IMG/VR virus record: IMGVR_UViG_2671180770_000028
Source of the DNA: a virus
Taxonomy: Duplodnaviria; Heunggongvirae; Uroviricota; Caudoviricetes
Length of the DNA stretch: 2,461 bases
Direction: 5' to 3' (one strand)
The position numbers and the translations under genes are program-made. Below, one piece after another: positions 1 through 2,461 of the stretch. The notes below the pieces were generated by a model. It had not been told where the DNA came from and did not search any database. It saw only the letters and a program-made list of their open reading frames with translations. Every line of letters begins with the position of its first letter. Within the stretch, counting starts at the first letter, position 1.

Positions 1-144
1 GATATGCCTGCCGGTCACGGTCACATGACGCTGGAGTTTTCGGTATCAGCATGGCTGGTGAATAACTGGTATCCCACAGCAAGTATCAGCGATTTGCTTG
101 TTGTGGTGATGAAGAAATCCACCGCAGGTATCACGATTAGCTGA
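1..144 (+). CDS. 3' end of an upstream gene (partial, start lies outside the window); probably the tail-tip/host-specificity J-like gene by synteny with lambda (J-lom-stf)
   Basis: Frame +1 is open from position 1 to the TGA at 142-144 (translation ...[38 protein letters not shown]), while the other two + frames hit stops within the first 65 nt. It lies directly upstream of lom and is followed by an intrinsic terminator. The functional assignment rests on gene order only; I cannot confirm the sequence identity from memory. Confidence 0.4.
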
Positions 145-163
145 ATTTTATAACCCATATACG

Positions 164-187
164 GGCGCCAGAAATGGCGCCTTTTTT
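164..187 (+). terminator. Rho-independent terminator: 7-bp GC-rich stem (GGCGCCA / TGGCGCC) with a GAAA tetraloop, followed by T6
   Basis: Seen directly: 164-170 GGCGCCA, loop 171-174 GAAA, 175-181 TGGCGCC (exact reverse complement), then TTTTTT at 182-187. It sits 20 nt after the upstream stop codon. Confidence 0.75.
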
Positions 188-211
188 ATTGCAGAAAAGC
201 GAGAGGTAATT

Positions 212-283
212 ATGCGTAAACTTTATGCCGCCATTTTGTCCGCAGCCATTTGTCTGGCCGTATCCGGTGCGCCTGCATGGGCG
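212..283 (+). other. Signal peptide of Lom (24 aa, predicted signal peptidase I cleavage after A-W-A)
   Basis: Positively charged N-terminus (MRK), a hydrophobic core (LYAAILSAAICLAV) and an AxA-type cleavage motif (AWA then S). Read directly from the translation. Confidence 0.75.
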
Positions 284-811
284 TCTGAGCAGCAGGCCAC
301 GCTGAGCGCGGGGTATCTTCATGCCCGGACGAACGCTCCCGGCAGCGATAATCTTAACGGGATTAACGTGAAATACCGTTATGAGTTTACGGACACGCTG
401 GGAATGGTGACGTCATTCAGCTATGCAGGAGACAAGAATCGCCAGCTGACCCGTTACAGCGATACCCGCTGGCATGAAGATTCCGTGCGTAACCGCTGGT
501 TCAGCGTAATGGCGGGGCCGTCTGTGCGCGTGAATGAATGGTTCAGCGCGTATGCGATGGCGGGTGTGGCTTACAGCCGTGTGTCGACTTTCTCCGGGGA
601 TTATCTTCGCGTAACTGACAACAAGGGGAAAATGCACGATGTGCTGACCGGAAGTGATGACGGTCGCCACAGCAACACGTCTCTGGCGTGGGGGGCTGGC
701 GTGCAGTTTAACCCGACCGAATCCGTGGCCATTGATATTGCTTATGAAGGCTCCGGCAGTGGTGACTGGCGCACTGACGGTTTCATCGTGGGGGTCGGTT
801 ATAAGTTCTGA
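212..811 (+). CDS. lom: Lom-like outer membrane protein (Ail/Lom/OmpX/PagC family 8-stranded beta-barrel), prophage lysogenic-conversion gene
   Basis: 199-aa ORF with a GAGAGG Shine-Dalgarno at 201-206, 5 nt before the ATG. The N-terminus is a typical Sec signal peptide (MRKLYAAILSAAICLAVSGAPAWA, then SEQQ). The C-terminus ...VAIDIAYEGSGSGDWRTDGFIVGVGYKF matches the lambda Lom C-terminus as I recall it, ending in the aromatic terminal residue (KF) typical of outer-membrane beta-barrels. The internal GINVKYRYE and SVMAGP..SAYAMAGVA motifs are also Lom/Ail-like. Confidence 0.93.
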   Translation: MRKLYAAILSAAICLAVSGAPAWASEQQATLSAGYLHARTNAPGSDNLNGINVKYRYEFTDTLGMVTSFSYAGDKNRQLTRYSDTRWHEDSVRNRWFSVMAGPSVRVNEWFSAYAMAGVAYSRVSTFSGDYLRVTDNKGKMHDVLTGSDDGRHSNTSLAWGAGVQFNPTESVAIDIAYEGSGSGDWRTDGFIVGVGYKF

Positions 812-837
812 TTAGCCAGGTAACACAGTGTTATGAC

Positions 838-865
838 AGCCCGCCGGTTCAGGCGGGCTTTTTTT
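838..865 (+). terminator. Rho-independent terminator between lom and the tail fiber gene: 8-bp stem, 6-nt loop, T7 tail
   Basis: Seen directly: 838-845 AGCCCGCC, loop 846-851 GGTTCA, 852-859 GGCGGGCT (exact complement), with a T run at 859-865. It lies 27 nt after the lom stop and 12 nt before the fiber ATG. Confidence 0.8.
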
Positions 866-876
866 GTGGGGTGAAT

Positions 877-1206
877 ATGGCAGTAAAGATTTCAGGTGTA
901 CTGAAAGACGGCACAGGAAAACCGGTAGAGAATTGCACCATTCAACTGAAAGCCAGACGGACCAGCAGCACGGTGGTGGTGAACACGGTGGCCTCTGAAA
1001 ATCCGGATGAAGCCGGTCGTTACAGCATGGACGTTGAGTACGGGCAGTACAGCGTTATTCTGTTGGTGGAAGGATTCCCGCCATCCCATGCCGGGACCAT
1101 CACCGTGTATGAAGATTCTCAACCGGGGACGCTGAATGATTTTCTCGGTGCCATGTCGGAGGATGACGTCCGGCCGGAGGCACTGCGTCGTTTTGAACAA
1201 ATGGTG
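877..1206 (+). other. Conserved N-terminal tail-attachment region of the side tail fiber (lambda Stf-like, about 110 aa)
   Basis: Residues 1 to about 110 (MAVKISGVLKDG...GRYSMDVEYGQYSVIL...GFPPSHAGTITVYEDSQPGTLNDFL...) track the lambda Stf N-terminus closely from memory. Similarity falls away once the Ala-rich stalk begins. Confidence 0.7.
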
Positions 1207-2190
1207 GAAGAGGCAGCGCGTCATGCCGGGGAGGCGAAGAAGAATGCCGGAGAGGCAGAGACGTCCGCGAGGAATGCCGGCATATCAGCCAGTCAGGCAG
1301 AAAAGAGCGCTGCACATGCTGACACTTCAGCAGGATATGCATCGGAGTCAGCCCGGCAGGCGGCAGAAAGTGCAGCCTCAGCAAAGCAGTCAGAGGAGGC
1401 GTCCTCGTCCTCGGCTTCTGCGGCCGCTCAAAAAGCCAGTGAGTCATCACAAAGTGCAGCAGAAGCTGAATTGTCAAGAAAGACGGCAGAAAGTGCAGCC
1501 GGTAATGCAGCCAGGGATGCAACGACCGCAACAGAAAAAGCCCGGGAGTCAGCAGAAAGCGCACAGTCAGCGGAACAAAGCAGGATAGCGGCGGAAGAAG
1601 CCGTAAACCGCATCCCCACCGTGGTGGGGCCTCCCGGGCCAAAGGGGGAACAGGGGCCCGCTGGCCCTCAGGGGCCGAAGGGAGATAAAGGAGAGCGTGG
1701 TGACACCGGCCCTGTCGGGGCAACCGGCGAACGGGGACCGGCAGGTGATGCTGGTCCGGCAGGCCCGCAGGGGCCGAAAGGTGACAGGGGAGAGCGGGGA
1801 GAGGCCGGTCTGACGGGAAATGCAGGTCCACAGGGTCCAAAGGGAGATACCGGTGCGGCAGGCCCGGCAGGCCCACGGGGACCGAAAGGAGAAACAGGTG
1901 CGGCTGGCCCGGTAGGGGCAACCGGACCTCAGGGGGCGAAGGGCGACCCGGGGGAGACGCAAATACGGTTCCGTATGGGGCCGGGAAACATTATTGAGAC
2001 AAACAGCAATGGCTGGTTCCCGGATACAGATGGCGCACTCATCACCGGACTGACCTTTCTTGACCCCAAAGATGCCACACGGGTTCAGGTTTTTTTTCAG
2101 CATTTGCAGGTCAGGTTTGGTGACGGGCCATGGCAGGATGTTAAGGGGCTGGATGAAGTGGGCAGTGATACAGGCAGAACAGGAGAATGA
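877..2190 (+). CDS. stf: Side tail fiber protein with a collagen-like triple-helix domain: lambda-Stf-like N-terminal region, Ala/Ser/Glu-rich stalk, 37 Gly-X-Y triplets and a short C-terminal globular domain (prophage-fiber C-terminal type)
   Basis: The ORF-track frame is 871..2190. I place the start at ATG 877 because the product then begins MAVKISGVLKDGTGKPVENCTIQLKARR..., which matches the lambda Stf N-terminus as I recall it (MAVKISGVLKDGTGKPV.NCTIQLKA...); GTG 871 would add two residues (MN). A purine-rich GGGG sits at 868-871. The stop is TGA at 2188-2190. The domain layout is read directly from the translation. Confidence 0.9.
   Translation: MAVKISGVLKDGTGKPVENCTIQLKARRTSSTVVVNTVASENPDEAGRYSMDVEYGQYSVILLVEGFPPSHAGTITVYEDSQPGTLNDFLGAMSEDDVRPEALRRFEQMVEEAARHAGEAKKNAGEAETSARNAGISASQAEKSAAHADTSAGYASESARQAAESAASAKQSEEASSSSASAAAQKASESSQSAAEAELSRKTAESAAGNAARDATTATEKARESAESAQSAEQSRIAAEEAVNRIPTVVGPPGPKGEQGPAGPQGPKGDKGERGDTGPVGATGERGPAGDAGPAGPQGPKGDRGERGEAGLTGNAGPQGPKGDTGAAGPAGPRGPKGETGAAGPVGATGPQGAKGDPGETQIRFRMGPGNIIETNSNGWFPDTDGALITGLTFLDPKDATRVQVFFQHLQVRFGDGPWQDVKGLDEVGSDTGRTGE
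1207..1626 (+). other. Low-complexity Ala/Ser/Glu-rich stalk of the fiber (probable alpha-helical or coiled-coil shaft), carrying internal in-frame DNA direct repeats
   Basis: The translation is dominated by A, S, E, Q and K with recurring AESA, SAAEAE and ARESAESAQSAEQS motifs. An exact 17-nt direct repeat CGGCAGAAAGTGCAGCC occurs at 1361-1377 and 1484-1500, both copies encoding A-E-S-A-A in frame. Confidence 0.65.
1627..1959 (+). repeat. Collagen-like repeat region: 37 consecutive uninterrupted Gly-X-Y triplets (111 aa) within the tail fiber CDS
   Basis: The translation GPPGPKGEQGPAGPQGPKGDKGERGDTGPVGATGERGPAGDAGPAGPQGPKGDRGERGEAGLTGNAGPQGPKGDTGAAGPAGPRGPKGETGAAGPVGATGPQGAKGDPGET has Gly at every third position with no break and is rich in Pro at X and in charged K/R/E/D residues. 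The DNA shows a strong 9-nt-scale GGN-CCN periodicity and raised GC content. Confidence 0.92.
1960..2187 (+). other. C-terminal globular domain of the fiber (about 76 aa; prophage tail-fiber C-terminal domain type; candidate distal receptor-binding or trimerisation cap)
   Basis: After the last Gly-X-Y triplet the sequence becomes non-repetitive and aromatic-containing (QIRFRMGPGNIIETNSNGWFPDTDGALITGLTFLDPKDATRVQVFFQHLQVRFGDGPWQDVKGLDEVGSDTGRTGE), consistent with a folded terminal module. The family assignment is from memory of E. coli prophage collagen-like fiber proteins and is not verified. Confidence 0.55.
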
Positions 2191-2191
2191 C

Positions 2192-2461
2192 ATGAACATA
2201 CTAAAAAAACTTATGCAGCGTCTGTGCGGTTGCGGAAAGCATGATGACCGTGAAAACGGGGAGTTACTTACAGCACAGCTGCGGCTGGGACCGGCAGACA
2301 TTCTGGAGTCAGATGAGAATGGCATTATCCCGGAGCAGGCCAGGGTAATCACGCAGGTGGTGATACTGGATGCGGATAAAAAGCAGATACAGTGCGTGGT
2401 AAGACCGCTGCAAATTCTGCGTGCTGACGGGACGTGGGAAAATATTGGCGGGATGAAATAG
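2192..2461 (+). CDS. Small hypothetical protein (89 aa, acidic, no signal peptide or transmembrane segment evident), translationally coupled to the tail fiber gene; function unknown
   Basis: ATG at 2192 follows the fiber stop codon (2188-2190) by 1 nt, and a strong AGGAGA Shine-Dalgarno at 2181-2186 lies inside the last fiber codons, 5 nt upstream. The ORF ends at TAG 2459-2461. Translation: MNILKKLMQRLCGCGKHDDRENGELLTAQLRLGPADILESDENGIIPEQARVITQVVILDADKKQIQCVVRPLQILRADGTWENIGGMK. Alternative in-frame starts exist at 2153 (with AAGGGG 5 nt upstream) and 2138. I do not recognise the protein. Confidence 0.55.
   Translation: MNILKKLMQRLCGCGKHDDRENGELLTAQLRLGPADILESDENGIIPEQARVITQVVILDADKKQIQCVVRPLQILRADGTWENIGGMK

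Follow-up and report, generated by a model that had tools for sequence, protein, structure and literature searches.

The gene lom lies in lambdoid prophages between the tail-tip gene J and a side-tail-fibre gene, and has already been treated in the literature as a moron and as a lysogenic-conversion gene. This position raises the question of how lom is transcribed, that is, whether it forms a self-contained unit that is active in the lysogen or is cargo served by transcription arriving from upstream. We examined the question in a window of 2461 nt (the whole stretch of DNA that was analysed), in which every gene is on the + strand.

Gene organization of the window

The order of elements in the window is J 3′ end, hairpin T1, lom, hairpin T2, side-tail-fibre gene and small fibre-C open reading frame (ORF). 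The genes and their translation signals are as follows.

1..144, + strand: 3′ end (last 47 codons and stop) of a J-type tail-tip/host-specificity gene; Pfam Ig_GpJ_C, E = 3.5e-10, profile positions 88-135 of 135
201..206, + strand: lom Shine-Dalgarno sequence GAGAGG, read from the sequence, 5 nt ahead of the ATG
212..811, + strand: lom, encoding an Ail/Lom-family 8-stranded outer-membrane beta-barrel protein of 199 aa; Pfam Ail_Lom (PF06316), E = 1.7e-117, residues 1-199 against profile positions 1-199
866..876, + strand: ribosome-binding region of the fibre gene, GTGGGGTGAAT, read from the sequence; it adjoins the T-run of T2
877..2190, + strand: side-tail-fibre (Stf-like) gene; Pfam phage_tail_N (1.7e-69), Collagen (2.5e-18) and Phage_fiber_C (9.3e-34)
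2192..2461, + strand: small ORF downstream of the fibre gene, 89 aa, with a second Phage_fiber_C domain; Pfam Phage_fiber_C, E = 1e-34

Over its full length, the window matched Stx2a- and Stx1a-converting phages and E. coli O145 and O157 prophages (95-97% identity). The annotation of these records names the products host specificity protein, Lom and tail fibre, the first of them appearing as host specificity protein J in the matching Stx phage records. Of 5426 complete E. coli genomes, 4835 matched the window at least in part (median 2 places, up to 16), and in 686 a match covered at least 80% of it; EHEC genomes hold many near-identical copies of the junction, which complicates read mapping. 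From the N- to the C-terminus, the fibre protein consists of a prophage tail-fibre domain, an Ala/Ser/Glu-rich segment, collagen-like Gly-X-Y repeats and a fibre domain, the C-terminus sharing 32% identity with the 89-aa ORF. The J-to-lom spacer is 67 nt long and the lom-to-fibre spacer 65 nt. The window is the distal end of the putative late (tail) operon of a lambdoid prophage of the Stx-phage type; both Q and the late promoter are located outside it.

The N-terminus of Lom, MRKLYAAILSAAICLAVSGAPAWA, is a Sec signal peptide with a predicted cleavage site after AWA, as read from the translation, and the C-terminus (...GYKF) ends in Phe, an aromatic residue typical of beta-barrel outer-membrane proteins. 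The full-length profile match, the signal peptide and the C-terminal aromatic residue together place the predicted product in the Ail/Lom family. The protein shares 47% identity with lambda Lom. Comparison of lom with J (taken from the relative L002) and the fibre gene showed no GC or codon anomaly that would mark lom as foreign: the GC contents were 0.563, 0.577 and 0.594, and the GC3 values 0.63, 0.69 and 0.53, respectively.

Predicted intrinsic terminators on both sides of lom

The original prediction had placed strong terminators at 164-187 and 838-865, and our analysis recovered a hairpin at each position. These hairpins and a conserved motif in the first spacer are as follows.

147..156, + strand: conserved spacer motif TTTATAACCC, between the J stop codon and T1; found in nearly all T1 variants, with or without lom
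163..187, + strand: T1, the resident J-distal intrinsic terminator (predicted); stem 163-170/175-182, GAAA loop, T-run to 187
838..865, + strand: T2, the intrinsic terminator travelling with lom (predicted); stem 838-845/852-859, 6-nt loop, T7 to 865

Both elements have the anatomy of an intrinsic terminator, with a G+C-rich stem, a short loop and a U-tract on the sense strand and a gene upstream. The 8-bp stem of T1 contains 6 G-C pairs (folding energy -15.7 kcal/mol, z = -3.3) and that of T2, also 8 bp, contains 7 (-18.2 kcal/mol, z = -3.4). A stringent scan of the window, requiring 8 or more base pairs in the stem, 6 or more of them G-C, a loop of 3-8 nt and a T-run, detected T1 and T2 only on the + strand and nothing on the - strand, and gave 0 matches in 1000 first-order Markov simulations of the window. 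The two hairpins occupy the window's only two sizeable intergenic spacers. The spacings had been given correctly as well: the lom ATG (212) is 25 nt past the T1 T-run, T2 starts 27 nt past the lom stop codon (811), and the fibre ATG at 877 is 12 nt past T2. With 11 nt between the T2 T-run, which ends at 865, and this start codon, and with the ribosome-binding site (RBS) adjoining the T-run, there is no room for a fibre promoter, as had been claimed.

The hairpin sequences were then compared among relatives. When 20 distinct T1 variants of related loci were aligned, pairing held in 97.5% of cells, and 3 of the 8 pairs showed two-sided compensatory changes (G-C to A-U and C-G to U-A). The covariation score was reached by 0 of 500 shuffles, and in a control in which the partner was slid by 1-3 columns pairing fell to 34-61%. 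The predicted T1 hairpin is under selection. T2 was nearly invariant among relatives, with a wobble pair retained in 6 of 9 changed cells; since its stem hardly varies, covariation says nothing for or against it.

Hairpins also recur at these positions with different sequences. Lambda has a hairpin of unrelated stem sequence at the T1 position, and Gifsy-1, PhiR12_2 and an E. albertii prophage have hairpins of unrelated stem sequence just ahead of the fibre RBS. Conservation of position while the sequence turns over is expected of functional terminators. In every context examined, a T-run was followed by the fibre RBS, and a predicted terminator directly 5′ of the fibre RBS is a constant feature of the junction. 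It is very improbable that the hairpins are instead chance palindromes, or protein-binding or REP-like elements. A lenient scan does give chance some footing, since its 3 hits, T1 and T2 among them, did not exceed the chance level (2.2±1.5 in shuffles). Against this alternative stand the result of the stringent scan (2 versus 0 in the 1000 simulations) and the restriction of its hits to intergenic positions on the sense strand. The invariant T-run, the compensatory changes in T1 and the recurrence of unrelated hairpins at matching positions in the four other prophages tell against it as well. No known RNA family was present in an Rfam scan of the window (E <= 1), which also counts against it; the only hit, to a human lncRNA model, scored 23 bits where the gathering score is 50 and was discarded as chance.

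The lom cassette and its empty sites

Filled sites (the window, L162 and 2G7b) were compared with empty sites (ev207, L172 and others, of which ev207 and phage 21 were read directly), and the comparison delimited one segment.

191..864 (±2 nt), + strand: lom cassette, a present/absent segment comprising leader, lom and T2

This cassette is 674 bp long, starts 3 nt past the T1 T-run and begins with a 21-nt leader that contains the Shine-Dalgarno sequence, which is kept in all lom+ variants and in lambda. With slashes marking the joints, the alignment of filled and empty sites gave the boundaries ...CCTTTTTTATT/GCAGAAAAG...GGGCTTTTT/TGTGGRG... The filled site reads ...GGCGCCTTTTTTATT/GCAGAAAAGCGAGAGGTAATT-ATG lom ... 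GGCGGGCTTTTT/TGTGGGG... and the empty site ...GGCGCCTTTTTTATT/TGTGGAG..., the 2-nt ambiguity of the boundaries corresponding to a TT microhomology common to both joints. In ev207, the J stop codon precedes the same T1 sequence, and TTGTGGAGTGAGT-ATG, with the fibre start codon, comes immediately after T1. The lom-less junction is spanned by 29 phage records (including phage 21, mEp460, ev017, 4A7, 1H12 and Tritos), and its exact motif was found in 97 IMG/VR stretches, about 90 of those examined having the arrangement J–T1–fibre with the same T1 family. The phage 21 record (OL657228) carries an annotated terminator and RBS at exactly the J–fibre junction.

Because lom-less relatives carry the same T1 ahead of the fibre RBS, T1 is resident and lies outside the insert. 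In this phage group the basal order is J, a predicted intrinsic terminator and the fibre RBS, and only T2 belongs to the cargo. The description of lom as a terminator-bracketed moron thus holds in that lom is presence/absence cargo between J and the fibre gene with a hairpin on each flank, but the bracket did not arrive as a unit: T1 is resident in lom-less relatives and T2 alone travels.

The association of T2 with lom is itself qualified by the comparison with lambda. The T2 spacer is 96% identical to that of lambda, and it is part of a block of 88-98% identity that starts about 90 nt before the end of lom, at about 720, takes in T2 and ends inside the fibre gene at about 1200. Upstream of about 720, lom DNA is only about 50% identical to lambda, which places a mosaic joint inside lom at about 720. 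Contig L090 retains T2, and from window position 813 has unrelated DNA, with a TerB-domain ORF inside, in place of lom. The lambda block and this contig suggest that T2 may be tied to the fibre side as much as to lom.

Three candidates for clean empty sites were rejected: L090, for the unrelated DNA joined at 813; L151, a rearrangement that joins a non-lom coding sequence inside T2; and L144, which has an insertion of ~1.95 kb, possibly an IS element, between lom and T2. A scan of genome contigs returned mainly lambda DNA in assemblies of unrelated bacteria, together with few informative enterobacterial loci.

In other phages the slot holds different cargo: in Gifsy-1 an 80-aa ORF whose hydrophobic N-terminus, by eye, resembles a signal peptide, and in PhiR12_2 a 163-aa ORF. 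Downstream of each ORF comes a terminator of its own that abuts the fibre RBS, and a Pfam search of the two ORFs gave no match. In E. albertii, lom plus extra DNA fills the slot, again with a terminator at its end and the fibre RBS right behind.

At least three T1/J-end haplotypes were seen in both lom+ and lom- states; as the same haplotypes carry both, the two states have been shuffled among backbones. The direction of change is a separate matter. It is possible, though we think it doubtful, that lom is ancestral and that nothing was inserted, the lom-less junctions having arisen repeatedly when the T-runs of T1 and T2 slipped or recombined illegitimately. The microhomology at both joints (TT and T-runs) favours such losses, and is compatible with deletion between T-runs as well as with insertion. 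Long residence of lom is also suggested by the two lom alleles, with only 47% identity, that occupy this slot alongside the same T2, and identical T1 haplotypes with and without lom agree with loss as well. However, homologous recombination in the flanks can shuffle both states, so that the shared haplotypes favour neither direction, and the unrelated cargo in the slot of Gifsy-1 and PhiR12_2 fits a site prone to gain.

Search for a lom promoter

A moron transcribed in the lysogen would be expected to bring a promoter, and the original prediction, which had found no convincing sigma-70 promoter in the spacer, suggested that it might lie within the 3′ end of the upstream gene. The first part of this statement was confirmed by consensus and weight-matrix scans, which agree. 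The sigma-70 consensus scan of the whole window returned no sites. In positions 1-230, the best weight-matrix score was 6.0 bits, a value matched or beaten by 90% of shuffles, and the site with this score would start transcription inside lom. By calibration, lambda pR scored 13.4, lacUV5 13.7 and pRM 11.1 bits; all of these scores are approximate, with matrix frequencies after the Hawley-McClure compilation. The placement of the promoter in the 3′ end of J was not borne out: besides the low best score, a comparison of 71 lom+ loci, whose J ends differ, showed no site of 9 bits or more that was conserved in position within 2 kb upstream of lom. Sigma-70 scans are blind to activator-dependent and alternative-sigma promoters.

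Two further considerations limit where a promoter could be. The cassette has no room for one, because its leader is only 21 nt long, and a promoter inside J would not stay linked to lom, because J 3′ ends differ among loci. Any J-borne promoter for lom must, moreover, transcribe through T1. The motif TTTATAACCC is kept despite the differing J ends and resembles a -10 box (TATAAC), and the weight-matrix scan found no -35 partner for it. A lom signal in the lysogen, if there is any, comes from a weak or non-consensus promoter or from leakage through T1, and not from a classical cassette-borne promoter.

Transcription of lom in the lytic cycle and in the lysogen

Our preferred explanation, to which we assign a probability of roughly 0.7, is that the locus is the end of a late operon in which a resident T1 is followed by lom and T2 as cargo and in which Q provides read-through. 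During lytic growth, as inferred from lambda biology, Q-modified RNA polymerase from the late promoter would pass both T1 and T2. J, lom and the fibre genes would be co-transcribed as one transcript after induction, since no promoter is recognisable for lom or for the fibre gene. Because its RBS adjoins the T2 T-run and leaves no promoter room, the fibre gene would have to rely on read-through of both hairpins. This need fits Q-type antitermination in a lambdoid late operon, and a review of Stx phages states that Q allows read-through of downstream terminators there. In a repressed prophage, which lacks Q, the terminator anatomy suggests that T1 would stop stray transcription leaving J and that T2 would keep any transcription of lom out of the fibre genes.

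The autonomous expression of lom in the lysogen that the original prediction included is an assumption taken over from the lambda literature, which does not speak with one voice. Transcription of lambda lom in lysogens is reported (Reeve & Shaw 1979; Chen et al. 2005). In an array study of the lysogen, Osterhout et al. failed to detect lom, and they state that little is known about its promoter. Strong expression of Lom in the lytic cycle was reported by Liu et al. 2013, as cited elsewhere. For Stx phage 24B, where lom has other genomic surroundings, constitutive expression in the lysogen was reported. The 24B_1 small RNA, described as lying "downstream of lom", was set aside, as it belongs to another context (a 933W-type short-tailed phage) and its authors state that the sequence is absent from the equivalent region of lambda.

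These reports bear on two alternatives. One is a classical autonomous moron, in which a lysogen-active lom promoter in the J 3′ end, or overlapping T1 and the leader, would work independently of the late operon, with T2 as the terminator and T1 as an upstream insulator. The reported transcription of lambda lom in lysogens, the use of the term moron for the lom product, the constitutive expression reported for 24B and the terminator that follows lom all agree with it. We nevertheless consider it unlikely, because the cassette offers 21 nt only 5′ of the ATG, the best upstream sigma-70 score falls below the 11-14 bits of known promoters and is reached by most shuffles, the 71 lom+ loci share no positionally conserved candidate, a J-borne promoter would need to cross T1, the GC content of lom is not deviant, and lom went undetected in the lysogen array of Osterhout et al.

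The other alternative treats lom as a plain late tail-operon gene with no autonomous expression, the hairpins serving mainly as RNA 3′-end or stability elements, or as insulators that silence the fibre genes in the prophage. The absence of a promoter from our scans, the strong lytic-cycle expression given in the secondary citation and the one lysogen array study in which lom was undetected are what this reading would lead one to expect, and a terminator stands 5′ of the fibre RBS whatever sits upstream, which suggests a role linked to the fibre gene and not to lom. Conversely, Lom or its RNA has been reported from repressed lysogens in older work and in one array study, it is not obvious what an outer-membrane adhesin would contribute to virion assembly, and the presence/absence polymorphism shows that the phage can do without the gene. 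We regard this alternative, too, as rather improbable, and give roughly equal weight to a weak or regulated promoter that escaped our scans and to lom as essentially a late gene.

A more far-reaching reading can be put forward as speculation that we hold to be quite unlikely. The J/fibre junction would be a hotspot of cargo exchange with the T-runs of terminators as joints, and lom cassettes would be units of a promoterless gene plus a terminator. Lysogenic expression, if any, would then come from leakage through T1 or from an unrecognised non-sigma-70 or activator-dependent promoter involving TTTATAACCC. If this reading were true, it would describe a moron variant in which the terminator, and not the promoter, defines the mobile unit.

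Significance and comparison with known systems

The junction is ordinary, being the already described lambda-type J–lom–stf junction in a Stx-phage-type backbone. Lambda has hairpins at both positions, and the J-distal terminator is annotated in phage 21. The small additions made here are that T1 is resident, that the exchange unit is a gene plus a terminator without a promoter, and that a predicted terminator always stands ahead of the fibre RBS. They matter little beyond annotation. The start of lom transcription in the lysogen is an old and modest question, and it bears on claims that Lom aids the adhesion of uninduced lysogens.

The closest known system is the lambda J–lom–stf (orf-401) region, which has the same gene order, the same spacer lengths, a hairpin with a T-run at both positions and the same Shine-Dalgarno sequence, and whose T2, lom 3′ end and fibre 5′ end are 88-98% identical to the window in DNA sequence. 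Tandem terminators distal to lambda J were reportedly mapped by Luk and Szybalski in 1983. The two regions differ in the Lom protein (only 47% identical), in the unrelated stem sequence of T1 and in the end of the fibre gene: lambda has the Stf distal part, whereas the window has collagen-like repeats and a Phage_fiber_C end, as in O157 and O145 prophages. The lom-less lambdoids (phage 21, ev207, mEp460 and 1H12) share with the window the T1 family, the T-run, the RBS and the fibre start, but are without the 674-bp segment of lom and T2. At the J/stf junction of Gifsy-1 from Salmonella, a small cargo ORF likewise sits in the slot and is followed by a terminator abutting the fibre RBS; the 80-aa cargo is unrelated to lom and the terminator sequence is different.

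Morons, in the summary of Juhala et al. 2000 given by Cumby et al. 2012 (PMC3594210), are phage additions with their own promoter, their own terminator and a deviant GC content. As with morons in the sense of Juhala and Hendrix, such as HK97 gene 15, lom is an added gene that separates two genes which are neighbours in relatives, since 191-864 is absent from lom-less junctions; the cargo is followed by its own predicted terminator, T2, and its product is of a host-benefit type, belonging to a family of outer-membrane adhesins. It differs from them in that the added DNA has no promoter within its 21-nt leader, with none recognisable upstream in the consensus, weight-matrix and 71-locus scans, and in that its GC and GC3 values do not deviate from those of J and the fibre gene. 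The label "moron" for lom therefore rests on its presence or absence among relatives and on its terminator, and not on a visible promoter.

Fibre gene and downstream ORF

Segments of the side-tail-fibre gene (877–2190) and of the 89-aa ORF that follows it (2192–2461) are listed here in window coordinates.

about 1230–1610: long Ala/Ser/Glu-rich stretch, 5′ of the collagen-like repeats in the fibre gene
1620–1960: collagen-like Gly-X-Y repeats in the fibre gene (Pfam Collagen, 2.5e-18)
1963–2154: Phage_fiber_C, first copy, at the C-terminus of the fibre protein
2273–2458: Phage_fiber_C, second copy, in the 89-aa ORF

The GC content was raised to approximately 0.70 in the collagen-like repeat region (1620–1960). 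The two copies of Phage_fiber_C shared 32% identity (E = 3e-13), and a single nucleotide separates the fibre stop codon from the start of the 89-aa ORF. A run of eight T residues was observed at 2090–2097, within the region encoding the C-terminal domain of the fibre protein. Because the frame of the downstream ORF is open from 2060 onward (ORF 2060–2461), a one-base slip at this run would join the fibre gene to the downstream ORF; this arrangement is probably coincidental.

A contig search of genome assemblies (L273–L294) returned matches to the fibre N-terminus in unrelated bacteria, including Pseudomonas, Shewanella, Oceanobacillus, Bradyrhizobium and Kitasatospora. These matches showed approximately 81% identity to the query, a value equal to that of phage lambda; some of the contigs were about 48.4–48.5 kb in length, and several record names stated a coverage of about 1x. 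The matches probably represent contamination with lambda control DNA.

The slot between J and the fibre gene

The interval between the stop codon of J, the tail-tip gene, and the upstream hairpin T1 contains a short motif.

147–156: TTTATAACCC, resembling a −10 box

This motif, which has no −35 partner, was kept across the variants of the J end, in loci with and without lom alike. If transcription started at TTTATAACCC, the T1 hairpin would lie at the 5′ end of the RNA.

Alignment with lambda (L001) over 720–1200 placed a mosaic joint inside lom. The final ~90 nt of lom, the downstream hairpin T2 and the 5′ end of the fibre gene were 88–98% identical to lambda, and the remainder of lom showed ~50% DNA identity and 47% protein identity. 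In the IMG/VR contig L144 (about 500–2455), ~1.95 kb of additional DNA, possibly an insertion sequence, separates lom from T2, and window positions 830–834 are apparently duplicated at both of its joints. In L090 (1–2440), J and lom are replaced by unrelated DNA that contains an ORF with a TerB domain and brings a terminator of its own, while T2 and the fibre gene are retained; the joint corresponds to window position 813, two nucleotides past the lom stop codon.

Gifsy-1 (L164, 2205–2447) and PhiR12_2 (L166, 1827–2318) each carry a small cargo ORF instead of lom in this slot. The two ORFs differ from each other, and neither matched a Pfam family. Both have a separate terminator downstream, which in either case adjoins the RBS of the fibre gene.
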